This document shows, one piece after another, positions 50,612-63,752 of a DNA stretch of 64,000 nt. Numbering within the stretch: the first letter of the stretch is position 1; each line of letters starts with the position of its first letter. The notes beneath the pieces were generated by a model. It saw nothing but the letters and a program-made list of their open reading frames with translations, was not told where the DNA came from and did no database searches. The position numbers and the translations under genes were made by a program. Source of the DNA: Chloroflexota bacterium (GTDB lineage Bacteria > Chloroflexota > UBA11872); contig JAJDZD010000039.1 of the NCBI GenBank assembly GCA_022824865.1, positions 55,106 to 119,105 on the forward strand, written 5' to 3'.

Positions 50612-51171
50612 TGCGCGACAGGTCGGTCGAACTGGTCGGTGACTTCGATAGCGCTGAGGCGCGCTTCCTGCACAGCCAGTTCGACGACTGCCGAATCGAA
50701 CTGATCGCCCGCTCCCAACTCGACGAGCGCACCGCCCTGCTGTGCTGGCAGCCCGCCGCGGATGTTCATCCACGCGCCGTCGAAACCACATCGCCCCGCG
50801 TCACCGACCGCCGCCGTCGCCCGCCCGTCGCCTGGTACGTCCTGGAACACAAACCGGACCTGCGCCTCACCCCCATCGCCACGAGCGCCGACCTACAGGA
50901 GCGCTACCCCGGCCACTTTCCATCCGACATCGTCCCGGACCAACCAGCCCGCAAAGGCTGCCTGCCCCTCCCCGGGCTGTTTTGGCCTGTCCTGTCTGCG
51001 CTGGCGCTGGGCGCGTCCTGGGGTTGCGGCCGCGACTCGCTAAAACACGGTGTAGCTGGTCGTCAGGAAAAACACGCCGACCACGACAACCAGGATCGGG
51101 ACCAGCACTCCCAGCCCGACAGCGACGACACCGAATCCCCAGGCCGCCGATCCGCGCCGGGACCGTCGTAG
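50611..51171 (+). CDS. Hypothetical protein
   Basis: 186-aa ORF whose ATG overlaps the tsaC stop (TGATG). The first ~130 codons have strong G/C third-position bias. The 3' end overlaps the convergent gene by 132 nt, so its extent is uncertain. Confidence 0.4.
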   Translation: MRDRSVELVGDFDSAEARFLHSQFDDCRIELIARSQLDERTALLCWQPAADVHPRAVETTSPRVTDRRRRPPVAWYVLEHKPDLRLTPIATSADLQERYPGHFPSDIVPDQPARKGCLPLPGLFWPVLSALALGASWGCGRDSLKHGVAGRQEKHADHDNQDRDQHSQPDSDDTESPGRRSAPGPS

Positions 51172-52170
51172 CAGGATCCAACCGGTAACCAGTGCCGTCG
51201 TACTTATCGCAATCGAAGGCAGCAGGCCCAGCGCCGGGTGCCAGGGAATGCGCTGCGAGGGGTCCGTCAGACTTGGGTAGTCCACAGTGGTCGACCCATC
51301 CGAAAACTGGCGCTTTTCTACGGTCGCATATGCGTTTTGCACGCACTCCAGCAACGGCGGGCACAGGTGGATGACTTGGGTCGTCCAGTCGCCGAGCTCC
51401 CAGGGAAGCTCGGAATCGTTAGGCGATGGATCCACGGGAAAGCCACCCCTTACGAAGGGAATGTGAGAGTCCACGAAGGCGCTGACTGTGGGCGAGTACG
51501 ATGGGTCGGCGCCGACTTCGCGGCCGTTCCAGCACCACCGTGTCTCTGAGTGGAACGTCCACAGCCGCTGCCCGATCAGGTTGTGGCCTTCGATGCCCCG
51601 GCGATGCACCTCACACGTGCCGTCCTCAACCGTCACCCTGTCCCTATACGCGGATCGCGCGTCGAATTCCTCAACCGAAATGTCTGTGACCACAGTCTCC
51701 ACTTCGAGTTCGACAACGGATCCCAATCCCAGCGATCCAATAGCCGTCGGCAGGTAGATCGCCACAGGGGCGATTGCCCTGACAAGGCCAACTGCGCCAA
51801 AGGCCACGCCAACAACGCCAAGCGCCCAGGTCGTCGAGCCTCGCTCCGCCGCTTTCAATATGACCGCTCCCGCGCCGAGCGCCGCGACAATCGGTGGGAG
51901 CGCGTTGGTCAGCGGGATGTAAAGCACGGTGATAGTCACCCCACTGACTGGAAACCCCCGAGCTTCGAAGATCAGGATCCGCAGACCATGCTCAAGGGCC
52001 AGGGCGGCGCCCCAAGCCGTGACGATGACGCCCAACCCCCAGACCAGCGACCCGCGCCCGCCCGACCGACGGAGTACCCACCCCGCGATGAAAGCCGCCG
52101 CGCAGATTGGGACGACGATCAGCAGGGTGTAGGCGATACCCACCAGCGGCGGCTCAGGCCCGGCTGGCAT
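51040..52170 (-). CDS. Polytopic membrane protein with one 4-Cys WCW ectodomain (paralogue of 52235..53869)
   Basis: GGAGGAG lies 7 nt upstream of ATG 52170. It has three copies of the TM hairpin G[WR]V[LM]RR..RGS.[AV]WG[LF]GV. It has one domain with C..LWTFHSETRWCWNG...LCPPLLEC. Confidence 0.6.
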   Translation of the reverse strand: MPAGPEPPLVGIAYTLLIVVPICAAAFIAGWVLRRSGGRGSLVWGLGVIVTAWGAALALEHGLRILIFEARGFPVSGVTITVLYIPLTNALPPIVAALGAGAVILKAAERGSTTWALGVVGVAFGAVGLVRAIAPVAIYLPTAIGSLGLGSVVELEVETVVTDISVEEFDARSAYRDRVTVEDGTCEVHRRGIEGHNLIGQRLWTFHSETRWCWNGREVGADPSYSPTVSAFVDSHIPFVRGGFPVDPSPNDSELPWELGDWTTQVIHLCPPLLECVQNAYATVEKRQFSDGSTTVDYPSLTDPSQRIPWHPALGLLPSIAISTTALVTGWILLRRSRRGSAAWGFGVVAVGLGVLVPILVVVVGVFFLTTSYTVF

Positions 52171-52234
52171 TACCTCGCTCCTCCACCCTGCCTGGAGTTG
52201 CGTCGCGGCACGGTCCACGCGGTTGGGGCATGAC

Positions 52235-53869
52235 TTATCCCACCGTATGGCTGGCCGCTACGAAGAACAGCCCCGTGACAACTAGGAGCGTCAGCATCAG
52301 GACTCCCAGCGACGTGGCGCTGACGCCTAACCCCCAGGCCAGCGCACCGCGTTCGGCGCACCGCCGCAGCACCCGACCGGTAACCAGCAGCGTCAGGGCC
52401 ACCACCAGCGGACCGATCAGCGAGAACAGAGCGGCTGAATATGAATCCTGATGGGGCAAATCGTCGACAGCGGAGGTTCCGTCCGCCTGCTGGGACTTTT
52501 GAAGCAACTGATCGTCGCGCTGAGTGCATCCAAGCAGCGGGACGCAGAGTTCGAAGGTCATGGAGGCCGTGTCCCTATGCATCCACTCGCTCTGGCCGCC
52601 GTGCTCCTCGGTGTTGTCGTCCACGAGGTTCCAGAATCGACCCTGCGACAAGGTCCGCGCGGAAACCTTGGGCTCGTCCGTAATCTCCACCCCGTCCCAA
52701 CACCACCAGGTTCCGGATCGGTAGCTCCATACCGGGTGGCCGAACAGGTTGCGCGCCGTCAGCCTGACCTCGTTATCCGTGCATTCATCGGCACGCGGCC
52801 CTGGCCCTGCGGAACCGCTTGGCAGTGACGCCATGTCGCCGAACGGCCCGCTGGCCGCTGCCGAGCTTCCGGGTTGTCCACCGGCCGCCGGCGTCTCCAC
52901 GGGCGCCACCACCGTTTCCTCAATCGGGACCTCCATCACCTCGACTCGCTCGACGCTCGTCGTCATCGACACCGACGTCGAATCCGAGCCGAACAGCGAC
53001 CCGATGCTGAAGATTCCTGTGTAGACGACTAACACGGCGATGTACAACGAGACCAGCACGCCCAGGGCACTCGCGACAACACCCAGCCCCCAGGCAGCCG
53101 AACCGCGCGGCGACTTCCGGCGCATGACGCGCCCGGCAATCAGCGGCGTGGCGGCCAGCGGGATATAGACGAGGAACGCCAGGTAATACCCGGGACGGGT
53201 CCAAGGGCCTGACCGATCCGGGTTATGGTCGATGTCTGAGGTTTCCGAGCCGTACCCGCCGTCCCCGTCCTGCCATTTTTGGACCCGAACGCTTTCGTCC
53301 TGAACGCAACTGTCCGGAGCCTCCGGGCAAAGCCGGAACAGACCTTCCGCCACGTCGGCGTGCTCCGCTTCGCCCTGCCCTCCGGATTCCTGCCGTTCGA
53401 GGTGGCCGGTGAACTCCCACAGGGGCGCATGGATCTCCGCGTTGATCGTGAAGACCGGCGCCGTGGTAATCACCCCGTCGGCCCAGCACCACTCGGTGAT
53501 GGATTCGTACGTCCATAGATCGCGCCCTTGCGCGTTGCGAGCCACGTACCCCGATGCCTGCCGCTCGCAGGTTTCGGTCGCGTCGATCGGGGTCGTGGGA
53601 CCGCCGCCGCTAGAGGACTCCGTCTTTTCGAGCCTCAGGTAGTCAACAACCGCGTGGCGGGTTTCGGCCGGAAGTTCGGCAAACTCCCGTCGCGGGTCCT
53701 CGGACGCGGCTAGCCGATCGACCACGGTAGTAACGGTGGCTAGGTCGGTCGCGCCCGGCTCGTGGGCCTCGGCGCCGCAGGCCAGGAGAGCGAACGCCAG
53801 CGCCGTCACGCTGGCCAGGCCAAGGAAGCGCTGCGCCGCCTGCGCGGTTCGGTCGCCTATACCGACCAT
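52235..53869 (-). CDS. Lipoprotein-type membrane protein with two 4-Cys WCW ectodomains and two TM hairpins
   Basis: 544 aa. N-terminal lipobox-like signal (LAFALLAC-G). The module [Cys domain - TM hairpin] occurs twice (LWTYESITEWCWADG ... LCPEAPDSC; VWSYRSGTWWCWDG ... LCVPLLGC). AAGGAAGGGG precedes the ATG. Confidence 0.6.
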   Translation of the reverse strand: MVGIGDRTAQAAQRFLGLASVTALAFALLACGAEAHEPGATDLATVTTVVDRLAASEDPRREFAELPAETRHAVVDYLRLEKTESSSGGGPTTPIDATETCERQASGYVARNAQGRDLWTYESITEWCWADGVITTAPVFTINAEIHAPLWEFTGHLERQESGGQGEAEHADVAEGLFRLCPEAPDSCVQDESVRVQKWQDGDGGYGSETSDIDHNPDRSGPWTRPGYYLAFLVYIPLAATPLIAGRVMRRKSPRGSAAWGLGVVASALGVLVSLYIAVLVVYTGIFSIGSLFGSDSTSVSMTTSVERVEVMEVPIEETVVAPVETPAAGGQPGSSAAASGPFGDMASLPSGSAGPGPRADECTDNEVRLTARNLFGHPVWSYRSGTWWCWDGVEITDEPKVSARTLSQGRFWNLVDDNTEEHGGQSEWMHRDTASMTFELCVPLLGCTQRDDQLLQKSQQADGTSAVDDLPHQDSYSAALFSLIGPLVVALTLLVTGRVLRRCAERGALAWGLGVSATSLGVLMLTLLVVTGLFFVAASHTVG

Positions 53870-53986: not shown

Positions 53987-54023
53987 GGAGGCCGGCTCCC
54001 TATGGGGTACGGAGCCGGCCTCC
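53987..54023 (-). terminator. Hairpin closing the phage-like operon
   Basis: Perfect 13-bp stem (ggaggccggctcc / ggagccggcctcc) with an 11-nt loop, 33 nt after the stop at 54056. On the minus strand it is followed by GGUCGUUUAGG, a weak U tract. Confidence 0.5.
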
Positions 54024-54055: not shown

Positions 54056-54406
54056 CTAGCCGCGTCCCTGTGCCAACCGGCCCTTGATCTGGCCCAGCGA
54101 ATCCGCCATCGAAGCCTGGTAGCGCGTCATTTCGGTGTGGTGCGTCGTCAGGCTGCGGTCGATGTTTTCCAGCAACTGCAACGCGCGGGTTTCCGAGTCG
54201 GTGCCGCGGGCGCGGCTGCGCCAGCGCACCATCTCGCTGCGCACCGCGCGCGCGATGTACACGGTCACGGCCGTGATGATGCCAATGGTTTCGGGCTCCA
54301 AAGCTCTTGCCTCCTTCGGGTGGTCCATGTCAATGCCGGGACTTGCGCCGGCCGGTGCGTCGAACGGATTCGGCTCCCTTGAGCCGGGCTGGTCGCGGAC
54401 TCTCAT
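54056..54406 (-). CDS. Small single-pass membrane protein (holin-like by position only)
   Basis: ATG 54406 overlaps the fibre-gene stop (TGATG), with GGAG 7 nt upstream. There is one TM (TIGIITAVTVYIA) followed by a charged helical tail. Confidence 0.5.
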   Translation of the reverse strand: MRVRDQPGSREPNPFDAPAGASPGIDMDHPKEARALEPETIGIITAVTVYIARAVRSEMVRWRSRARGTDSETRALQLLENIDRSLTTHHTEMTRYQASMADSLGQIKGRLAQGRG

Positions 54407-55458
54407 CACACTGCTCCAATCGCCAGCCAATAAATCAGGCCGGGGTCCGAATTCGTGAAGTTGCGGCCGTCCCCGGTGGCGGCCTGCAGGGTGAAGCCGG
54501 CAACGCGCAGGTTGGTGCAGCGCGCAATCACGCGGCGCCCGCCAATGTCCTCGCGTGGCGTGGCCAGGGCCGCGTAGACCGTGCGGAAGGCCGTCTCAAA
54601 CGTCACGTCAAGATCCGACCAGTTCTGCGAGGTCACGCCCGTCACCGAGGCCACCCCAACCTCCGCCCGCCACTGCCCCCGGTCCACGTGGTTGGCCGGC
54701 GTGCTGTCCTGGAAGTTGGTCAGGCGCAGCGCCTGGTCCAGCGGGTTTGGCGTAAATGCCGGCGCCAGCGTGCCCTCAGCCAGCTGCAGCCCGTCGAACC
54801 AAGCCGTCGTGTCGCCCTGCTTAATCTTGCAGAGCGCCAGCAGCGCCGGCGCCGTGCTATCCGCAACGATCGTGGCGGTCAGCCACTCCCAGGCCGAACT
54901 GCCCGAGTGGTAGGACGAGATGGAGGTGGTCACGCCATCGCCCAGTTCCAGCCGCGCTCGATTGGGAACCGTCGCGTAGACCCAACCGCCCAGGGTGAAC
55001 GTACGCCCCCGCAGGTAGGTCAGTCCGCCCAGGTCGTCGGCCAGGCCGCGGCGCAGATCGCAGTCGGCGCCCCGCCGCGTCAGCGAGGCCGCGTAGCGCC
55101 CGTGCTTGACAACGGAAGTCGCGCGCGCCACCCGGGCCGCATTGCCGGCCAGCGTCCAGCCGTCCGGTGCCAACGTTCCGCCGCCCGACCACGACTCGAA
55201 GTCGCCATTCGGCAGCGCGTTGTGAAACTGCTCGGCGTGGAAGGCATCCAGCGCCAGTTTGGCCGTCGTCACCGCGCCCGCGGCCAGCGCCGCTTCTGTG
55301 AGCTGCGGCCCTTCGCCCGCTTGCCCGCTGTGGTCGTGCCCGGTCGTGGCGTGGAAGCCGGCGTCGATCAGGTCGGCGTTGTTGTTGAACACGTTGATGT
55401 CGTATCGCTCGGCGCCCAGCGGCTTCGTCAGCCGCAGGTTCGCCGTGGTGGTTGCCAT
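54406..55458 (-). CDS. Phage tail-fibre-like protein with C-terminal jelly-roll (CBM_4_9-like) domain
   Basis: The N-terminus MATTTANLRLTKPLGAERYDINVFNNNADLIDAGFHATTGHDHSG..GAVTTAKLA follows a pattern I recall from prophage tail fibres. It is followed by NGDFESW...GW...WFDGLQLAEG. GGAGGG lies upstream of ATG 55458. Confidence 0.65.
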   Translation of the reverse strand: MATTTANLRLTKPLGAERYDINVFNNNADLIDAGFHATTGHDHSGQAGEGPQLTEAALAAGAVTTAKLALDAFHAEQFHNALPNGDFESWSGGGTLAPDGWTLAGNAARVARATSVVKHGRYAASLTRRGADCDLRRGLADDLGGLTYLRGRTFTLGGWVYATVPNRARLELGDGVTTSISSYHSGSSAWEWLTATIVADSTAPALLALCKIKQGDTTAWFDGLQLAEGTLAPAFTPNPLDQALRLTNFQDSTPANHVDRGQWRAEVGVASVTGVTSQNWSDLDVTFETAFRTVYAALATPREDIGGRRVIARCTNLRVAGFTLQAATGDGRNFTNSDPGLIYWLAIGAV

Positions 55459-55469
55459 GTCGCGCCCTC

Positions 55470-57848
55470 CTAGAGCCTGGCGAGTTGGGTATGTAGATAG
55501 GCGGCCTGGGCCTGGTGGGCATAGGCCGCCAGTCGGTTGTGGGTGCCCGTGCCGGCGGTTGGCCGGTATTCCGTGGCGGTCACCGGCATCAGCCATTCCA
55601 GGTCGCGCCCGGCCTCGCTGCGCCGCCCCTGGGCTTCGGCGCCGCGCACCAGCGCTTCGATGTGCTCACCGTCCGGGCTGACCAGCACCACCGGCTCGCG
55701 CGTGGCCGCAGCGGCGGCGATGGCTTGCTTGATCGCGCGGCCCGACCGCCGGTCGCGGCGTCCGTCGCGCAGCGGCGCCTGGTCCGCGATCCGCGCCACG
55801 AACTGGAACACCCGCTTGAAATCCGCGCGGATGGCATAGGCCAGCGAGGCGGCGTGAATCACCGGCGTCGTGGTGGGGTCGTCGCTGTGCAGCGTCAGCC
55901 GCAGGTCGATGGCCGTGGCCGCGGCCTCCGACCCGAACTCGATGCGCTGACCGCTGGCCGCAAAGCGTCCCAGTTGCTTGAACGGCGCTCCGTCGGCCAG
56001 CCGGTAGGCCGCGTCCACCCAGGTGGACGCCGTCAGCCGGTCGCCGCTCAGCGTGAGGGCCAAGAAGGCCTTGGGTTGCGCCGCGAACGCCGCGTCGAAG
56101 CGCGAAAGGTACACCTCCGCGCTGGCGGCGAAGCGACAGTTGGGATCGTGCAGCGGATTAGCCGAACCCCGCGGCAGCACGATCGCGGCCAGCGATCCGC
56201 CAACCCCCAGGTACAACCGCGGGTTCGGCCCCGGCCGGTCCGACACCCACATGTGTCGGCAGTCCACCCGCCCAAGCTGCGCGAGAGGATGCCAGGACTC
56301 CTGGTCGGGGTTGAACGCCAGCAGCGTGGTGTGCCCAGTCTCGTCCCGCAGCGCCGCATACAGGAAGTGGGCGTCGCCGGCGCAGGCGCTGATGCGGCCC
56401 CGGATCGGCGAGTCGTTTTCGCGCAGACGTTCCGGGCCGACGGGCGTCAGGTCGCCGGACCGAAAGCGAAAGAGCCCCTGCGACAGCGGGAGCCACAGAT
56501 AGCCGCGCCATACCGCGGCGCCACGGCCGCTGTGCGGACTTGAACGCCGCGCCCGCTGTGACCAAAGGTGTTCCGCCACGGCGCCGCGTTCGGCGCCGGG
56601 GCGCAGCGCATAGAGGCCGTCCTCCTTCACCACGTAAGCCGTGCCGCCCAGGCTCAGGAGCGCATTGGCGTCGCAAGCGCCGTCGCCCACCGGCGCGCCG
56701 TCCGTCCAGGTGGAAGCCGACCCGCCGTCCATTGAGATCGACAGCCTGGGCGCGCCGGTCTCACTGCTCACCCGCGCCAATTGCGAACCGATCACCAGGA
56801 ACGCGTCGGCCTTGCGGACTTCGCGTACCGCCAGTTCGTTGATGCGGGTTGAGGAGTCCAGCGCCGACCCAACGGTCAGCCGCAGCCAGAAGGCCTCCAC
56901 CCCGTTGATCGTCGACCGCCGCCAGCCCGCCGGTTCCTCGAACCTCAGTTCGCCATCGTGGGCCAACGTTCTGCCATCCTGTGCCGTGCTGTCGTTCAGC
57001 CCGCCCACGGCCGTCCAGTCCGAGCCATTCCAGTACTCCGCCGCAAGTTCGGCCGCGTTGCCATTCGCGGCGGCGTTCATTTCAATGGCCACCGCCGCGA
57101 ACGGCGCCTTGCCGCCCACCAGCAGCCAGGCGCCGTCATTCGCCGCGCCCAGCGAGTCCAGGTGCCCGTACGTCCCCGCGTCCGCGTCGCTGACGGCCTC
57201 TGTGAGATCGGCGTACGTCTGGCCGCTGTCGGCGGTTCGCAGCACCGCCGTCGGGTTGGCGCGCTGACCGGCGTGTTGTGTCCAGGCTGTGCCGTCGAAC
57301 GTCCAGAATGGCTCGTCGGCCGCCGAGCCGCCCACGCCGACGAAGGCCAGCGGCCGCTCCGCGCGTCCCTTGAAGACCGCGGCGGACGTCGCCGTAACTC
57401 CCGGCTCGAACGCCTTGGCCAGCGTCCAGGTCCGGCCGTCCCGCGAGCGGTAGACGGCGGACCCCGCCAGTACGTAGATGGCGTCGCCGAGTTCGAAGTG
57501 GTCCGTAATCTCTCCTGACGACGTAATCGGCGTAGTCATGACCTCCGGCGGCAGGGTGATCTGGTGCGGGATGCGCGTGTCGGCCAGCCCGTGGGCGTAG
57601 CCGGTCGACCCGCCGCGCGGGACGATCCGCTGGCCGTACCCGCCTGAAAGGTCATCCACCGCCCAGGTCGTCTCGTCTTCGGGCGGGAACTGGGCGTAGG
57701 ACTGGTCGGTCTGGCTGACGCGCGGCGCAAAGAAATCCAGCTTGCGCTCGCGCCAGGCCACCGTGCCCTCGGTCCCGGTGCTGAGCATCAGGCCCGTCCC
57801 GTCCACCATGCAGTCGTAGGGATAGGGCGGGCGGTTGCCGCGTGGCAT
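55470..57848 (-). CDS. Large phage structural protein (792 aa; tail-tubular-B/tailspike position), with BNR/Asp-box-like motifs
   Basis: GGAGG lies upstream of ATG 57848 (TAAATG junction). Asp-box-like SRDGRTW, TADSGQTY and SMDGGSASTW motifs suggest a beta-propeller. I do not recognise a family confidently. Confidence 0.55.
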   Translation of the reverse strand: MPRGNRPPYPYDCMVDGTGLMLSTGTEGTVAWRERKLDFFAPRVSQTDQSYAQFPPEDETTWAVDDLSGGYGQRIVPRGGSTGYAHGLADTRIPHQITLPPEVMTTPITSSGEITDHFELGDAIYVLAGSAVYRSRDGRTWTLAKAFEPGVTATSAAVFKGRAERPLAFVGVGGSAADEPFWTFDGTAWTQHAGQRANPTAVLRTADSGQTYADLTEAVSDADAGTYGHLDSLGAANDGAWLLVGGKAPFAAVAIEMNAAANGNAAELAAEYWNGSDWTAVGGLNDSTAQDGRTLAHDGELRFEEPAGWRRSTINGVEAFWLRLTVGSALDSSTRINELAVREVRKADAFLVIGSQLARVSSETGAPRLSISMDGGSASTWTDGAPVGDGACDANALLSLGGTAYVVKEDGLYALRPGAERGAVAEHLWSQRARRSSPHSGRGAAVWRGYLWLPLSQGLFRFRSGDLTPVGPERLRENDSPIRGRISACAGDAHFLYAALRDETGHTTLLAFNPDQESWHPLAQLGRVDCRHMWVSDRPGPNPRLYLGVGGSLAAIVLPRGSANPLHDPNCRFAASAEVYLSRFDAAFAAQPKAFLALTLSGDRLTASTWVDAAYRLADGAPFKQLGRFAASGQRIEFGSEAAATAIDLRLTLHSDDPTTTPVIHAASLAYAIRADFKRVFQFVARIADQAPLRDGRRDRRSGRAIKQAIAAAAATREPVVLVSPDGEHIEALVRGAEAQGRRSEAGRDLEWLMPVTATEYRPTAGTGTHNRLAAYAHQAQAAYLHTQLARL

Positions 57849-59072
57849 TTACCAACCTCCCCCCAACATCACCCGCCGGGTGGCGCGCGGCCGATAGAGA
57901 CGGGAAAGCTGCTGAAACTCCAACGCGGCGTCGCGTTGCAGGGCTGCATAGCGCGCCACGTCGCCGGCCGGCGCGTCGCGGTGCAGGTGTCGGTAGACCT
58001 CCACCAGCGCCCCTTGCGCCACCCAGTCCACCGGGGCGTCGGTCACGGCGTCATCGCTGGCCAGCGGATCGTAGGCCCGCAGCCCTTCGATCAACAGTGT
58101 CTCGCCCAGGCTGGGCGGCGGGTCCGCTTCCAGCCATAATTCCGGCCCCGCCGGCCCTGGGTTGGCCGTGGTTCGCCACCAGGGCACCGCCGACATCACC
58201 CGCTGCGGATGGGCGGCTGCCCGCCGCCAGACCTCCACTACTTGCTGGCGATGCGTGATCCAGGCGGGCAGTGGGAACCGTCGGCGACCAGCCGCCAGCA
58301 GGATCACCTGGTCCCAGCGGGTTGCCGCCTCCGCCTCCGCGGCGCCCAGGCGGACCTCGATCTCCTCGCATCCATCGGGAGTCACGAACGTCAGACGCAC
58401 TCGCTGCCAGGCCCGGCCCGTGGCCGTAACCGCGTCCAGGTCAACGCCGCCGGTCAGGTTGTGAACCGCCAGCCGCGCCGTCGATCCGCCCGGCGCCACC
58501 GACGCTTCCAGCGTGTACGGCTGGCCCGGCAGCACGGCCAGCGCGGTCGAGGCCGCGTAACCGCCCGCCGCCGTCGCGGTCACTTCCAGGCTCGCGGCCC
58601 CGCCGGCCGCGTCCGCACCGGCCGCGACTTTGGCCGCGTCGGCGTTCCAGGTACGCCAGGCCCGCGTGTCCCGGCGTTCCATGGCGCCGTCGACCAGCAT
58701 GGTCAATGGCGAAAGCGTCTGGAACCAACAGCGCGTGAGCGTGGCGTCGATGGCCGCGTTGATCACGTCCGGCGCAACCAGCCGTAAGAGTTCATAGGAC
58801 GACGCGGCTTCGACCGAGCGGGGAAACGCCCGGCTGACCGTTATCGAACCCTCCGCCGGATCGTAGGCCGCCACGCGCCGGGTTTCGCCCGCGTTTGGAC
58901 CGTCAAGCAGGTGGACCCAGCTGTCGGTCCACAGGTCGGCGGAGGCCGTGGAGTCCTGAAGCCGCGCCGGGTCGACCAGCGTCACCGTAGACCCGTTGTC
59001 CGACGTCCCGGTCAGAAACGGCGCCAGCCGCTGCGCGATTCGCTGGCGCAATGCGCGCCTCGTTACGCTCAT
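57849..59072 (-). CDS. Phage structural protein (407 aa) with internal jelly-roll domain
   Basis: MSVTRRALRQRIAQRLA... begins at ATG 59072, in an ATGA overlap with the 84-aa ORF. The central segment DGAMERRDTRAWRTW...SLEVTA...YTLEASV...WQRVRLTF...WDQVILL is CBM/jelly-roll-like. Confidence 0.55.
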   Translation of the reverse strand: MSVTRRALRQRIAQRLAPFLTGTSDNGSTVTLVDPARLQDSTASADLWTDSWVHLLDGPNAGETRRVAAYDPAEGSITVSRAFPRSVEAASSYELLRLVAPDVINAAIDATLTRCWFQTLSPLTMLVDGAMERRDTRAWRTWNADAAKVAAGADAAGGAASLEVTATAAGGYAASTALAVLPGQPYTLEASVAPGGSTARLAVHNLTGGVDLDAVTATGRAWQRVRLTFVTPDGCEEIEVRLGAAEAEAATRWDQVILLAAGRRRFPLPAWITHRQQVVEVWRRAAAHPQRVMSAVPWWRTTANPGPAGPELWLEADPPPSLGETLLIEGLRAYDPLASDDAVTDAPVDWVAQGALVEVYRHLHRDAPAGDVARYAALQRDAALEFQQLSRLYRPRATRRVMLGGGW

Positions 59073-59323
59073 GGGCGGACCTCCGCGGGCTGGTCGCCCT
59101 GCTGGTCCCACGCCGCTCGCTGCGAATCCAGCGCCTCCAGGTCCGCGGCGCCGCGATCCCGCAGCCGCGCCGCCTGGCGCTCGCGCATCGCCAGCGCTGT
59201 GTCGTGCGCTTCCTGGCGGTCGGGCGTAATCACCAGGATCTGGCGTCCGCCCGCCGCGCCCGGGAAGCGGTGGATCAGGCGCCGCGCCGGGCGGCGCCTG
59301 ATCCAGATGATGGGAGCGTGCAT
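59069..59323 (-). CDS. Small phage-module protein (84 aa)
   Basis: AGGAGGAGG lies 10 nt upstream of ATG 59323. Its stop overlaps the next start (ATGA). I recognise no family. Confidence 0.5.
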   Translation of the reverse strand: MHAPIIWIRRRPARRLIHRFPGAAGGRQILVITPDRQEAHDTALAMRERQAARLRDRGAADLEALDSQRAAWDQQGDQPAEVRP

Positions 59324-59355
59324 GTGCCGCTACCTCCTCCTGGAACCGTCCGGCC

Positions 59356-60210
59356 TTAGCTGGACGGGGTGGACGCGTCGAAGTACATCTCCACGCCCCA
59401 GGCGTCCGCGTATTCGCCCAGGCCGTAGTCCGCCACCACGTTCAGCTCCCAGGCCCGCAGCGAGGCGTCGCGCTCCCGCTCCACGGCCCAGTCCTTGAAC
59501 ATCACCAGCACCAACGCCTCCTTGGAGAACACCGCGCCCTTGGCGTCGTCGTTGGCGTCCACCGTCAGGTTTCCGGCCTGGAAGATGTCCACCCCGAACG
59601 CGCGCGCCACCCAGTGGTTCTCCAGCACCGTCTGCGAGATGCCGGCCGGCACCGGGTATGTGCCCGTGGGCGAAATGTCCGCCGCCAGGTCGTGTGCCTG
59701 GTACGGGTGCAGCACCGCGTGGAACGGCTGCGGGGCCGGCTCGATTGCTCCATGCAGGCGCGACACCGCGGCACGCAGGTGCCCCATCGTGATGTCCTGG
59801 CCGGCCCCGCCCAGCGACGTGCTGAAGCCGTCCAGCATCCCCAGCAGGTCCGTGTCCAGCTTGCGGGCGATCGCGTCGCCCAGCACCCGCCCGGCCGCCC
59901 GGGCCATGTCTTCCTTGGCCGTGCGCAGCGCGCGGTCGGTCAGCACAATCTGCGCGCCCACCTCGGCGGGCGTGATCGTGACCTTGCTGGTAGTCAGCGT
60001 TTGCGGGTTCGTCATATCCACGCCCTCGGTCAGGGCGCTGGCCGACACCGTGCCGAACTTGGGAATCTCCAGCCGGTCGCCGGCCCCGCGCGGGACCCGA
60101 TAGGTCCGCACCAGCGGTTCCATCACCGTGCGGTGCATCTGCGTGCGGCGGGCTTCGGCAATCACCGTGTCCACCACGTCGTCAATTGAATCAGTCTTCG
60201 TTATCGCCAC
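59356..60210 (-). CDS. HK97-fold / T7-type major capsid protein-like
   Basis: 284 aa. GGAGG lies 7 nt upstream of GTG 60210. KVTITPAEVGAQIVLTDRAL...LGDAIARKLDTDLL and the C-terminal KGAVFSKEALVLVMFKDWAVERERDASLRAWELNVVADYGLG parallel the T7 gp10/HK97-type capsid pattern. There is no delta domain. Confidence 0.65.
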   Translation of the reverse strand: MAITKTDSIDDVVDTVIAEARRTQMHRTVMEPLVRTYRVPRGAGDRLEIPKFGTVSASALTEGVDMTNPQTLTTSKVTITPAEVGAQIVLTDRALRTAKEDMARAAGRVLGDAIARKLDTDLLGMLDGFSTSLGGAGQDITMGHLRAAVSRLHGAIEPAPQPFHAVLHPYQAHDLAADISPTGTYPVPAGISQTVLENHWVARAFGVDIFQAGNLTVDANDDAKGAVFSKEALVLVMFKDWAVERERDASLRAWELNVVADYGLGEYADAWGVEMYFDASTPSS

Positions 60211-60615: not shown

Positions 60616-60644
60616 ATTGTATACGATTGGGATACGACGCGCAA
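60616..60644 (-). promoter_or_regulatory. Candidate sigma-70-type promoter for the phage-like operon
   Basis: On the minus strand: TTGCGC (60644..60639), a 17-nt spacer, then TACAAT (60621..60616). It sits in the only AT-richer patch of the intergenic region. Pattern match only. Confidence 0.3.
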
Positions 60645-60763
60645 CCCACACTAGCCGGCCCATCAGCACCGTAACCTTGTCAGCCAGCGCCTTTTGCTCT
60701 TTCCATGCCGGTAGCCTGCGGCTACGATGCTTATGTCTACCGGGTAGTCCATGGAGACGGCGC

Positions 60764-62137
60764 ATGCTGGCTATGCACTCCAGTTTCAGGCAACTCACGG
60801 TCCGCAGACTGTTCGCAGGCGCGGCGCTTGCCACGGCTTTGATGCTGGCGCTTGTGGCCACGCCAGCTTTGGCTCAATGGCCCACCAGCTGTGTGGCACT
60901 AAACGACATCGTCGAGGCCGACCTGGGCAACAGCCAGAACGTCGGCATCTATCAGCGTGTCTTCGGCGACCAGGCCGAGCAGGCTTGCCGGAACGACCAT
61001 CGCAGCGATGTCCAGTCAACCTTCGCTTGGGCGATTCCCACGCCGGCCCCAGCGCCCGCGCCCCAGCCGGCCCCAGCGCCGGCGCCCGCGCAGTTTCCCG
61101 CCTCGCCCCCGATTGGCGAAGTCACGCTTATGGTCGCCTCGCCGTTCATCTTTCAGGATGGAACCATCTGGATTGGTACCTCCGCCGGCGGCGTTCTCCG
61201 ATCCACCAATACGGGCGCCAACTTTCATCAGGTCATCAGCGGGTTACCCAACCTGACCATCAATGCCATCCTGCCGTCGCCGAACCTGCATCTTGACGGC
61301 GTGGTCTTGGCGGCCACGGACGCCGGGCTGGCGCGCTCCACGAACCGCGGTGAGACCTGGACGGCCGTGTCCGGCCTTCCCGCCGGTCGAATCGGCGGGT
61401 TGGCGGCTTCGTCGGCATTCGAGACCAACAGCGCATTCTTTGCGGTTGCCGATGCCGGCGGACTGTTCGAATCCACCGACGGCGGGGCGAACTGGTCGCC
61501 TGTACCCGCTGCGCATGGGTTCGGCTTGGCGCCCGGACGGTACCTCGGATTGGCCGCGGTCGATGGACGCGGAAGCTCCAGGCACGTGTTTGCTTGGACA
61601 TCCACCAGATTGCTCGGCAGCAACAACGATGGCCGAGGCTTCCGATCGCAGATTGGTCCCGGGGCTCTGCCGAATGATCTCAGTATTTCGGCTGTCGCCT
61701 TCCACACCGAGTATCGCAGCAAACCGATCATTTTTGTCGGTTCTGTGCAGCACGGCCTCTACCGCTCGAGGAATAGCGGCCAGGACTTCACGAAGGTGAT
61801 TGAGAACCACAAGGATGAGCTGGGCCGCATCAACACGATCGCCCTCTCGCCCAATATCACCCGTGACGGAACCGTCGCGGTCGGAACCACAAAGAAGGGG
61901 CTCTACATAAGCAGGAAGGTCGTTCGAGTCGGCACCGTCACTGACCCAGGTAACAAGTCGGACTGGAAGCATCGCAGCGTGAACCTGAACATCTCGAAAG
62001 TTCAGGGCATCGCCTTCAGCAACAATTACCTGCGGGATCGGTCGCTCTGGGCCGCTGGCGAGGTCCAGTTCGCGTTTAGCCACTCCGCCGCGGCCGACTG
62101 GTACACCTATCCCAACCCGGTGGGTCCCATCGGCTAG
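60764..62137 (+). CDS. Secreted BNR/Asp-box repeat beta-propeller protein
   Basis: Signal peptide (RRLFAGAALATALMLALVATPALA). A small Cys-containing N-domain is followed by a Pro-Ala linker (61037..61090). Repeated Asp-box-like motifs follow (STNTGANF, STNRGETW, STDGGANW, SNNDGRGF, SRNSGQDF). I chose ATG 60764. Confidence 0.75.
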   Translation: MLAMHSSFRQLTVRRLFAGAALATALMLALVATPALAQWPTSCVALNDIVEADLGNSQNVGIYQRVFGDQAEQACRNDHRSDVQSTFAWAIPTPAPAPAPQPAPAPAPAQFPASPPIGEVTLMVASPFIFQDGTIWIGTSAGGVLRSTNTGANFHQVISGLPNLTINAILPSPNLHLDGVVLAATDAGLARSTNRGETWTAVSGLPAGRIGGLAASSAFETNSAFFAVADAGGLFESTDGGANWSPVPAAHGFGLAPGRYLGLAAVDGRGSSRHVFAWTSTRLLGSNNDGRGFRSQIGPGALPNDLSISAVAFHTEYRSKPIIFVGSVQHGLYRSRNSGQDFTKVIENHKDELGRINTIALSPNITRDGTVAVGTTKKGLYISRKVVRVGTVTDPGNKSDWKHRSVNLNISKVQGIAFSNNYLRDRSLWAAGEVQFAFSHSAAADWYTYPNPVGPIG

Positions 62138-62164
62138 AGCGGTGTAGATGGCCACGCCCTTTGT

Positions 62165-62204
62165 GGGGGGCGACGGGACTATCCGTCGCCCCCCAGGGCT
62201 TTTG
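62165..62204 (+). terminator. Intrinsic terminator after the BNR gene
   Basis: Perfect 12-bp stem (ggggggcgacgg / ccgtcgcccccc) with a 6-nt loop, followed by AGGGCUUUUG. Confidence 0.6.
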
Positions 62205-62291
62205 CAGCACGCACCAAAACCTCGCTCGTAGCTCATCCGCACCGTGGGCTAGGCTCCCACCAGCGCGCCAACGCCTGAGTCTGGAGATGCT

Positions 62292-63752
62292 GTGGAACCC
62301 AAGAACCTCCTGGTTCTCATGTCCGACGAGCACAACCCCCGCATACTGGGCCGCGCCGGACACCCGCTGGTGCAAACCCCCAATCTGGACGCCCTGGCCG
62401 CGGCCGGCACCTCATTCGGCTCCGCCTACTGCAACTCCCCCATCTGCGTCCCCTCGCGCGCCAGCTTCGCCACCGGCCGCTACGTCCATCAGATCCGCGC
62501 CTGGGATAACGCCGCGCCCTACACCGGCAGCGAGGCCTCCGGCTGGGGGCATCGGCTCACAGAGAACGGCCACGCCGTCACCACCATCGGCAAGCTCCAC
62601 CACCGCAACACCACCGACGACATCGGCTTTCCCGACCAGCGCATCCCCATGCACGTCATGCACGGGATCGGGGATGTCTTCGGCTGCATTCGTTCCAACA
62701 TGCCCCAGACCCGCTATCAGCTCGGCCATGTTGACCATGCCGGCGACACCGACTCCGAGTACATCCGCTACGACACCGCCATCGCCGCCGAAGCCGTCCG
62801 CTGGCTCCAGACCGAGGCGCAAACGCACGAGAAACCCTGGTGCCTCTTCGTGTCCTTCACCCTGCCCCACTTTCCATTCGCCGCCCCGGATCACCACCAG
62901 CGCCGCTATCGGATTGACGACATCGACATGCCCATCGCCTGGTCGCCCGATCAGTGGCCCATGCATCCGCCCCTGGCCGCTTTCCGCGAGGCGCGCGTGC
63001 AAACGGCTAAGGACGTTCGCTCGGAAGAGGCCATCCGCCGGGCTCGTCTCGTCTACTACGCCATGTGCTCGTTTGTCGATGAGTTGATCGGAGACGTCCT
63101 CGGCGCTCTCGGCGACGCCGGTCTGGCCAACGACACCCGCATCGTCTACACCAGCGACCACGGCGAAACCCTCGGCGACTACGGCCTCTGGGGCAAGAGC
63201 GTCATGTACGACAGCGCCGCCGCCGTCCCCCTCATCCTGGCCGGGCCCGACGTGCCAGCCGGCCGATCAGTCGACTGCCCCGTATCGCTGGTCGACCTCG
63301 CGCCCACCATCATGGCCGGCACCGGCGTCCAACACGCCGCTGCGGACGCCGACCTGCCAGGCACTGACCTGTGGTCCATGGCCGCAGGCGACGAACCGGC
63401 CGACCGCACCGTCTTCAGCGAATACCACGCCACTGGTTCCGCCTCCGCCACCTACATGCTGCGCGACCGCCGCTGGAAGTACGTGCACTTCGTCGGCCAC
63501 GACCCGCAACTCTTTGACATGCAGACCGATCCCCACGAGCTCACGAACCTGGCGGCCCTGCCGGCCCACCGGCCGCGCGTCGCCGACTTCCAGCGCCGCC
63601 TGACCGCCATCTGCGATCCCGTAGCCACCGACGCGGCCGCGCGGGCCGATCAGCAACGGTGCATCGAAGCCAACGGCGGCGAAGCCGCGATCCTTGCCGC
63701 CGGCCAACAAATCAAATTCACACGCGCGCACGAACAGTTCCGCATCGGGTGA
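62292..63752 (+). CDS. Sulfatase (choline-sulfatase/arylsulfatase family)
   Basis: LLVLMSDEHN and the formylglycine CxPxR motif (SPICVPSRAS). GGAG lies 5 nt upstream of GTG 62292. Confidence 0.9.
   Translation: MEPKNLLVLMSDEHNPRILGRAGHPLVQTPNLDALAAAGTSFGSAYCNSPICVPSRASFATGRYVHQIRAWDNAAPYTGSEASGWGHRLTENGHAVTTIGKLHHRNTTDDIGFPDQRIPMHVMHGIGDVFGCIRSNMPQTRYQLGHVDHAGDTDSEYIRYDTAIAAEAVRWLQTEAQTHEKPWCLFVSFTLPHFPFAAPDHHQRRYRIDDIDMPIAWSPDQWPMHPPLAAFREARVQTAKDVRSEEAIRRARLVYYAMCSFVDELIGDVLGALGDAGLANDTRIVYTSDHGETLGDYGLWGKSVMYDSAAAVPLILAGPDVPAGRSVDCPVSLVDLAPTIMAGTGVQHAAADADLPGTDLWSMAAGDEPADRTVFSEYHATGSASATYMLRDRRWKYVHFVGHDPQLFDMQTDPHELTNLAALPAHRPRVADFQRRLTAICDPVATDAAARADQQRCIEANGGEAAILAAGQQIKFTRAHEQFRIG

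Follow-up and report, generated by a model that had tools for sequence, protein, structure and literature searches.

A syntenic capsid-tail operon of podovirus type in Chloroflexota chromosomes suggests a domesticated, gene transfer agent-like particle system

To our knowledge, gene transfer agents (GTAs) have been defined genetically in very few lineages, and those have long tails. The RcGTA and VSH-1 types are long-tailed, and genes of the RcGTA type have been reported to be biased in GC. In Bacillus, the contractile-tailed element PBSX is fixed, non-replicating and conserved among related species, and it keeps head, packaging and tail genes. Here, a block of six minus-strand genes was analyzed in a 64,000-nt stretch of contig JAJDZD010000039.1 from a Chloroflexota bacterium (hereafter the window; all coordinates are positions in it). 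The comparisons suggested, with a probability that we put at about 0.6, that the six genes would be the capsid-tail operon of an old, chromosomally fixed, podovirus-derived gene set, domesticated as a multi-locus, GTA-like particle system. Like RcGTA (Rhodogtaviriformidae), BaGTA and VSH-1, the set consists of endogenised tailed-phage genes at more than one locus, with vertical inheritance, co-divergence with the host at deep level, purifying selection and no integration or replication genes in the neighbourhoods examined. It also resembles GTAs in a lysis enzyme that lies apart from the head-tail cluster in the lineage of the window, and in a G+C content at third codon positions (GC3) above the host mean. 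It differs from them in its short, nozzle-type tail, its Chloroflexota host, its family of major capsid protein and the interruption of its cluster by cellular genes. No description of a Chloroflexota GTA was found in the literature.

The capsid protein was found with 84-96% identity in 32 Chloroflexota genomes, each representing a species and many being closed chromosomes of 2.7-3.8 Mb, and these were divided into group A (19 species) and 13 others, among them group B, the more distant lineage. In group A, all six genes were found in the same order and with the same lengths, between a sulfatase gene (with a BNR gene in some lineages) and a Sua5/YrdC-type gene. Outside group A, the capsid gene followed the sulfatase gene in most of the 13 species, and Sua5 lay downstream wherever the sequence extended that far; the order there was capsid, two small open reading frames (ORFs), adaptor-position gene, nozzle, a different fibre, small ORFs and an M23+SLT hydrolase. 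The block stood beside Sua5 in 11 of the 11 genomes whose Sua5 was at least 75% identical and in none of the 69 genomes that were more distant; close relatives showed no empty site. The capsid was 85% identical between lineages whose sulfatases were about 63% identical, and the sulfatases across genomes ranged from 62 to 92% identity. An insertion sequence (IS) with a DDE_Tnp_1 transposase lay between the capsid gene and the next operon gene in one group B genome (L002:11155-12132), and no ORF was broken by it.

The ratios of nonsynonymous to synonymous substitution (dN/dS) of the block genes and the host flanks were calculated pairwise by the Nei-Gojobori method against the window genes, within group A (Table 1). 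The synonymous divergence (dS) was 0.2-0.7 within group A and about 0.5-1.2 compared with other lineages, the ORFs were intact and of constant length in the 32 species, and the dN/dS of the block genes resembled that of the flanking host genes. Across lineages, the distances of element genes tracked those of the host flanks with Spearman coefficients of 0.76-0.82. A sequence-only reading of the window had argued that the block was not a freshly decaying remnant, and had proposed either a domesticated phage-derived apparatus or a satellite-like module, each relying on genes elsewhere. The first judgement was borne out by the synteny in 32 species, the intact ORFs and dN/dS of 0.08-0.4, and the same three lines of evidence favored the domesticated apparatus. 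That reading had also found the composition indistinguishable from that of the host, which was right in so far as the codon usage correlated at 0.95, and went too far in that the GC3 of the block was 0.83-0.91 compared with 0.80 +/- 0.04 in the host. The block composition is ameliorated, with GC3 even above the host. The GC3 of the capsid gene, 0.91, was more than two standard deviations above the mean of the 32 other long ORFs of the window (0.80 +/- 0.04), and the entire block was shifted likewise.

The identities of the six products were examined by family, profile and structure searches. The earlier call of an HK97-type capsid was confirmed for gene 1, which matched Pfam PF25209 (Phage_capsid_4) at 8e-10 (39.8 bits, gathering cut-off 27), Pfam PF05065 (Phage_capsid), also above threshold (24.5 compared with 24.2 bits), and PHROG 267/544, major head protein, at about 1e-12; judged by these families, gene 1 is an HK97-fold major capsid protein. 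The match to NCBIfam TIGR04387 (N4-gp56 family major capsid protein) reached 33.4 bits, below the curated cut-off of 60, and some capsid homologues carry the N4-gp56 name in the JGI annotation. An encapsulin was rejected, as the Pfam scan of the capsid gave no Linocin_M18 match and the relatives keep portal and terminase genes alongside. No close free phage was found, the best matches being 41% identical in IMG/VR and 37% among GenBank phages. The nearest named capsids were those of the Pelagibacter phages HTVC111P and HTVC026P (37%), and with HTVC112P, HTVC202P and uncultured marine phage contigs (277-295-aa capsids) the closest group spanned 36-38%. These phages have the head module of terminase, portal, scaffold and capsid, in that order, in genomes of 31-32 kb, and the set described here resembles them in this module and its separate, putative scaffold gene. 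The Pelagibacter phages and marine contigs differ in that they are complete 31-43 kb genomes with replication genes, and their tail genes are unrelated.

The 792-aa product of gene 4 was modelled from 31 homologues with a predicted local distance difference test score (pLDDT) of 65, and the model was good at residues 100-430. Its top Foldseek matches in the PDB were podovirus tail or portal-tail chains (Pa223, cyanophage A4, LME-1, HRP29, P-SCSP1u, T7 and E1004), including the T7 chains 7ey9_s and 9jyz_P of 792-793 residues; the E-values were 9e-9 to 9e-6, but the template-modelling (TM) scores were 0.16-0.26 and the sequence identities 8-14%. In addition, the family profile matched orf18 of LME-1 (E 1.6e-8), which forms one chain of the portal-tail complex. 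The comparison with T7 gp12 in the sequence-only reading thus received support from both searches, and the prediction that the protein folds like podovirus tail nozzle proteins, T7 gp12 included, is supported at fold level. The nozzle had no match among GenBank phages. Three distant nozzle homologues (P0167-P0169) were set aside as uninformative, since only the inserted domain was in common and at least P0167 belongs to a long-tailed phage with a tape-measure gene.

The jelly roll proposed for the 407-aa product of gene 3 was confirmed in its AlphaFold2 model (pLDDT 79), which consisted of four long helices and a beta domain with the jelly roll inserted at about residues 140-270, and Foldseek matched carbohydrate-binding modules (CBMs) of families CBM4/16/22. 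One full-length match was found in BFVD, to an unnamed viral protein (E 1e-20); a profile search against the PDB gave no match. In the structure searches the CBM insert dominated the Foldseek matches and obscured the comparison with adaptors. From gene position only, we infer that this protein would be the adaptor, and its four long helices are consistent with that. The CBM-like insert (residues 141-249) also had a sub-threshold match to NCBIfam NF048003 (GTA_spike_fiber, the GTA head-spike fibre domain), at 28.6 bits with a cut-off of 36.

The fibre call for the 350-aa product of gene 5 was weakly supported. Weak matches to Pfam Gp53-like_C and CBM_4_9 and to a PHROG tail family were detected; about 50 N-terminal residues were kept across all lineages and the remainder was replaced in group B, as would be expected of a phage receptor-binding protein. 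Two tail proteins carry carbohydrate-binding modules. Gene 2 had no family match in the Pfam, PHROG and NCBIfam scans; its product was 69-92% identical within group A and 40-47% identical to that of the first of the small ORFs downstream of the group B capsid gene. Gene 6 had no match in the scans of Pfam, PHROG, NCBIfam and PADLOC-DB and was found in group A and in one further locus (L027) only. None of the six proteins matched a defence-system model of PADLOC-DB, in which only the Xre-type helix-turn-helix (HTH) protein described below matched generic control-protein models.

The earlier view of the operon as capsid, adaptor-position, nozzle and fibre genes was upheld. Compared with the tail of T7, the operon showed the same order of capsid, small gene or genes, adaptor-position gene, nozzle of about 790 aa and fibre, and its predicted nozzle fold matches those of Pa223, LME-1, HRP29, A4 and P-SCSP1u. 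It differs in having no detectable sequence similarity to gp11 or gp12 and in the low TM scores of the nozzle. Owing to its CBM insert, the adaptor-position protein reaches double the size of gp11. No internal core like gp14-16 was recognised, and the capsid belongs to the Phage_capsid_4 family and not to that of T7 gp10.

The sequence-only reading had also reported that everything needed to assemble and fill a particle was missing from the window, and had treated the lack of portal, scaffold, terminase and lysin as a property of the element. For the window this stood in part, as tblastn with the lineage's own portal, large terminase subunit (TerL), scaffold-like gene and lysin gave no match in it, the window ORFs having been profile-scanned only in part. 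For the element it did not stand. In 30+ related Chloroflexota genomes, a portal gene, a small ORF and TerL were found 8-14 kb upstream of the capsid gene, beyond the sulfatase gene, and the lysin was adjacent to the tail genes in group B or distant in group A. The relatives' portal and TerL fall just past the position at which the window ends, which makes the absence largely a window-edge effect. An alignment scan of the same genome set for TerL gave 48 loci.

The order in both lineages was portal (about 572 aa), an ORF of about 131 aa that overlaps the start of TerL, TerL itself, a variable stretch, the sulfatase (with BNR in some) and the capsid gene. In one locus (L027), a 433-aa TerL lay 1.7 kb upstream of the capsid gene and was preceded by a 575-aa portal-like gene. 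TerL matched PHROG_2 at E about 2e-23 to 6e-22 (6e-22 in L027) and, among solved terminases, PDB 4znj at E 2e-11; its Walker A motif (GERAGKS) and acidic residues were invariant, and its length was 433 aa in nearly every locus. Twelve of 14 portal members matched PHROG_156, and the portal was 25% identical over 530 aa to a 597-aa protein encoded upstream of scaffold-size and capsid genes in a related phage-like contig; neither Pfam nor the PDB gave a sequence match. The putative portal is named from PHROG_156, from this homologue and from its low dN/dS (Table 1). The ORF overlapping the TerL start is a possible small terminase. The neighbours of TerL included a conserved Xre-type HTH protein and an acidic protein of 231-245 aa with conserved helical ends and a variable acidic linker, whose C-terminal 26 residues matched the scaffold-position protein of the related phage-like contig by BLASTP (E 0.004); this protein is a weak candidate for the scaffold. 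The portal, TerL, HTH and scaffold-like genes were found in three different arrangements among the genomes, and none was lost. In a 66%-identical relative on a 416-kb JGI contig, a portal-size gene, a scaffold-size gene, the capsid gene, tail genes and a lysin appeared contiguous, as judged by gene sizes alone.

The contig of the window itself, matched over 11,709 identical nt, has the scaffold-like gene 7.4 kb upstream of the capsid gene, at the window-equivalent position 67566-68261. Its upstream end is reached about 13.9 kb from the capsid gene (about 6 kb past the scaffold-like gene), after a methyltransferase/Mrr gene. The distance from the capsid gene up to TerL is 13.8 kb in the closest relative; portal and TerL were not seen on the window's own contig because it ends first. 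The DNA methyltransferase/Mrr-type gene at the end of the source contig (L091:20510-21461, window-equivalent about 72800-73750) had no counterpart in the aligned region of the closest relative, and its place between the scaffold-like gene and the expected TerL probably reflects a restriction-modification insertion specific to this strain. The sulfatase stood between TerL and the capsid gene in both lineages, which implies that its insertion is older than the split between them; some genomes add a BNR/sortilin-type protein and HicB, PIN, bPH_2 and glyoxalase-type genes there (window 60617-63752 on the plus strand, L072:11319-19188).

A second, solitary and intact TerL paralogue was observed in group A (L089:9941-11311 of OZ242271.1, L060, L063, L064, L070, L075, L076, L083 and L084). 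It had about 436 aa in most loci and was 64% identical to the TerL of the element and 83-98% identical among its own members. A second cluster around this paralogue was ruled out, since its neighbourhood was not conserved.

Group A also has the M23+SLT hydrolase, with 73-77% identity to the one located behind the group B tail genes, but at a distant, syntenic locus. There it forms the C-terminal half of an ORF of about 673 aa, fused to an N-terminal domain of about 340 aa (L103:4960-6981, OZ242271.1), and a VapBC-like pair follows. To judge by eye from its NEP ... TEFN motifs, this ORF has an N-terminal half that resembles a TIM-barrel glycoside hydrolase.

The 200 nt preceding the capsid start codon showed nucleotide conservation across 21 genomes and throughout group A, where only single bases had been gained or lost as indels. 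In the 48-pair structure derived for this leader, 96% of the alignment cells were paired, compared with 38-45% when the partners were slid, and eight pairs had changed on both sides. The covariation was modest because the sequence is so conserved. The G-U pairs place the RNA on the capsid-sense strand. A covariance model found the core stem-loop in the distant lineage as well, at the same distance, about 100-150 nt, upstream of the capsid gene. No Rfam family was matched, and ARAGORN found no tRNA or tmRNA; a tRNA-like identity, suggested by eye from a GTTCGAT loop in some genomes, was dropped after both searches. The leader is a candidate regulatory cis-element of the capsid-tail operon.

Pfam-annotated genes within about 10 kb on both sides were surveyed in several genomes. 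The neighbours were cellular genes, IS transposases, toxin-antitoxin genes and one Xre-type HTH, and neither a phage integrase nor a replication module was among them; the window had no tRNA, and no sign of attachment (att) sites was seen. With no integrase or replication genes within about 10 kb and no tRNA in the window, an intact prophage was rejected. A phage satellite of the phage-inducible chromosomal island (PICI) or capsid-forming PICI type was also rejected, as the site is fixed, the neighbours contain no integrase and the block is present in every close relative sampled. The satellite alternative of the sequence-only reading is thus contradicted by the fixed chromosomal position, the integrase-free neighbours examined and the co-divergence with the flanks.

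In the proposed system, the clade-wide set comprises a packaging and regulatory part (portal, small ORF, TerL, Xre-type regulator, acidic scaffold-like protein and leader RNA) and a particle part (major capsid protein, 84-aa protein, CBM-insert adaptor-position protein, gp12-like nozzle, fibre with exchangeable distal part and M23+SLT hydrolase), and insertions of cellular genes (sulfatase, BNR, toxin-antitoxin) separate its packaging module from its capsid module. Inheritance of the set is vertical, with each part under purifying selection. Host control, exerted by the Xre regulator, the leader RNA or both, may lead a subpopulation of cells to build short-tailed particles, which TerL would load with DNA through the portal. 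Once released, the particles could attach to related cells by means of their fibre and carbohydrate-binding modules. Particle production, contents and role are proposed here on the basis of the observed gene identities, synteny, selection and multi-locus layout. All recognisable head, packaging and nozzle-tail parts were kept at low dN/dS through at least three rearrangements, gene insertions and the relocation of the lysin, which argues for a domesticated system and against both a remnant and a mobile element.

The GTA and viriform criteria have been set out together with an evaluation of three independently exapted GTA groups (PMC9662315). Endogenisation across loci was found here (the same site in 32 species, packaging and capsid modules separated, and the lysin distant in group A), as was mostly vertical inheritance with co-diversification (conserved flanks, no empty site in close relatives, and the correlation across lineages given above). 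The other criteria of that work are random host DNA in particles, an element too big for the head and delivery to other cells. Since the size criterion possibly does not hold and the rest are experimental, the set is called GTA-like rather than a GTA.

Several observations weigh against the proposed system. The main locus spans about 18-26 kb including insertions, compared with 31-43 kb for the phage relatives with this capsid family, so that it is not obviously too large for its head, and the classical GTA criterion of an element unable to package itself may well fail. The scaffold assignment is weak, with a profile-profile probability of 0.13 in hhalign and homology unconfirmed, and the adaptor was assigned by position. 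No internal core or ejection protein was recognised. Portal and TerL are expected in the strain of the window by extrapolation from its relatives, and the group A lysin, fused to another domain, might be a purely cellular enzyme. Finally, the congruence of gene-to-gene distances within group A was weak (Spearman 0.2-0.4); it was just as low when the host flanks were compared with each other, a sign of general recombination.

More narrowly, the set may be an independently domesticated, short-tailed GTA of podovirus type, fixed in this Chloroflexota clade at two to three loci or more and with its operon governed by the leader RNA. We consider this possible, though less likely than not. If true, it would be the first case of a nozzle-type tail, and of this phylum, among genetically defined GTAs.

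The alternative that fares best is a killer particle of the kind formed by defective prophages such as PBSX, or another use without transfer (delivery, adhesion), in which killing or binding competitors would be the selected role. The Chloroflexota set is like PBSX in being a chromosomally fixed, non-replicating prophage derivative with head, packaging and tail genes, and differs in having no sequence relationship to it. The evidence for a functional particle, namely intact genes and low dN/dS, fits this explanation equally, and the exchanged distal part of the fibre and the CBMs of two tail proteins fit any target-cell specificity. The sequence features do not separate killing from transfer; dN/dS of about 0.1 in TerL and portal implies that DNA packaging matters, though likewise in PBSX. 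Overall, a killing or binding role appears unlikely, though it is a live rival.

A piecemeal exaptation, in which some genes would have been kept for unrelated cellular roles, such as forming the shell of a compartment or acting as lectins at the surface, and a whole particle would not be formed, is a poorer candidate still. The splitting of the cluster by cellular genes, the unrecognised core proteins, the weak scaffold call and the relocated, fused lysin are in its favor, but the portal, TerL, capsid, adaptor-position protein, nozzle and fibre were kept together through three rearrangements at low dN/dS, and the capsid has no encapsulin-family match. We regard this explanation as improbable.

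A functionless cryptic prophage remnant in slow, neutral decay would account for the host genes, IS elements and toxin-antitoxin genes inserted within or beside the cluster and for a group A lysin that is no longer adjacent. It is hard to reconcile with ORFs that have stayed intact and unchanged in length in 32 species over synonymous divergences of up to about 1, with low dN/dS across the genes and a capsid more conserved than the flanking host genes, the more so as the genomes, to judge from the range of sulfatase identities, are not near-clonal; the probability of such a remnant is very small. A mobile element, either an active temperate phage or a satellite using the parts of a helper, to which the parts seemingly missing in the window and the second, solitary TerL paralogue elsewhere in group A genomes might point, is just as implausible given the same site and flanks in all genomes, the absence of an empty site in close relatives, of an integrase in the examined neighbourhoods, of a tRNA in the window and of any att sign, the co-divergence of the embedded host genes with the element and the lack of a close IMG/VR relative.

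If the GTA-like interpretation is true, domestication would have taken place independently once more, in Chloroflexota and with a particle of different architecture. The names of many clade bins suggest sponge metagenomes, and the hosts are uncultured and apparently host-associated, a setting in which gene exchange is hard to study. The leader RNA would offer a handle on host control of a domesticated virus. In general, when phage parts appear to be missing from a fixed window, syntenic relatives should be checked before the absence is accepted.

Table 1. Features of the capsid-tail operon and its surroundings, with ranges of dN/dS
Feature	Position	Strand	dN/dS	Remarks
Conserved structured RNA leader, about 160-200 nt, eight helices	60270..60475	-		about 66 nt upstream of the capsid start codon
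Gene 1, major capsid protein, 284 aa	59356..60210	-	0.08-0.15	HK97 fold by family assignment, without delta domain
Gene 2, 84-aa protein	59069..59323	-	0.20-0.65	translationally coupled to gene 3 (ATGA)
Gene 3, 407-aa adaptor-position (tail tubular A position) protein	57849..59072	-	0.12-0.21	CBM-like jelly roll inserted
Gene 4, 792-aa predicted tail nozzle protein (T7 gp12-like)	55470..57848	-	0.15-0.22	beta-propeller and inserted jelly roll
Gene 5, 350-aa fibre / receptor-binding candidate	54406..55458	-	0.12-0.21, one pair 0.42	weak family matches, conserved N-terminus
Gene 6, 116 aa	54056..54406	-	0.22-0.40	one hydrophobic segment (by eye), coiled-coil-like tail; holin-like as a guess
13-bp G+C-rich hairpin, operon end	53987..54023	-		read directly: GGAGGCCGGCTCC...GGAGCCGGCCTCC, downstream of gene 6
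BNR-repeat protein and sulfatase	60617..63752	+	0.12-0.18 (sulfatase, host flank)	Pfam families of orthologues; cellular-type, between capsid-tail and packaging modules
Sua5 (host flank)			0.13-0.32	
Packaging module (portal, TerL)	outside window		portal 0.10-0.14; TerL 0.07-0.10	in relatives, beyond the sulfatase

The translation signals reported for the operon were verified. All six ORFs were present at the coordinates of Table 1, and Shine-Dalgarno sites were read in the sequence as GGAGG before the GTG at 60210, AGGAGGAGG before the ATG at 59323, GGAGG for the starts at 59072 and 57848, AGGAGGG before the ATG at 55458 and GGAG for the start at 54406. The coupled junctions were likewise read as an ATGA overlap at 59072, TAAATG at 57848 and TGATG at 54406. 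Orthologue lengths favored the shorter of the possible starts, as chosen in the sequence-only reading, giving 407 and not 420 aa for gene 3, 350 and not 396 aa for gene 5, and 116 and not 124 aa for gene 6. The hairpin after gene 6 is real; a simple terminator scan did not call it because no clear T run follows.

Between gene 6 and Sua5, the window encodes two paralogous membrane proteins of 392 and 544 aa with internal repeat domains (51040-53869, minus strand), which were found in four other group A genomes only (L013, L019, L024 and L026) and had no PADLOC match. The group A bin of L009/L069 also has a contig (L100, JAJEDE010000015.1) with a tail-lysin cluster of group B type, either a second copy or the sign of a mixed bin. 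One TerL contig (L059) is assigned to a Bryobacterales bin, and a lysin with 58% identity (L117) to a Gemmatimonadales bin.

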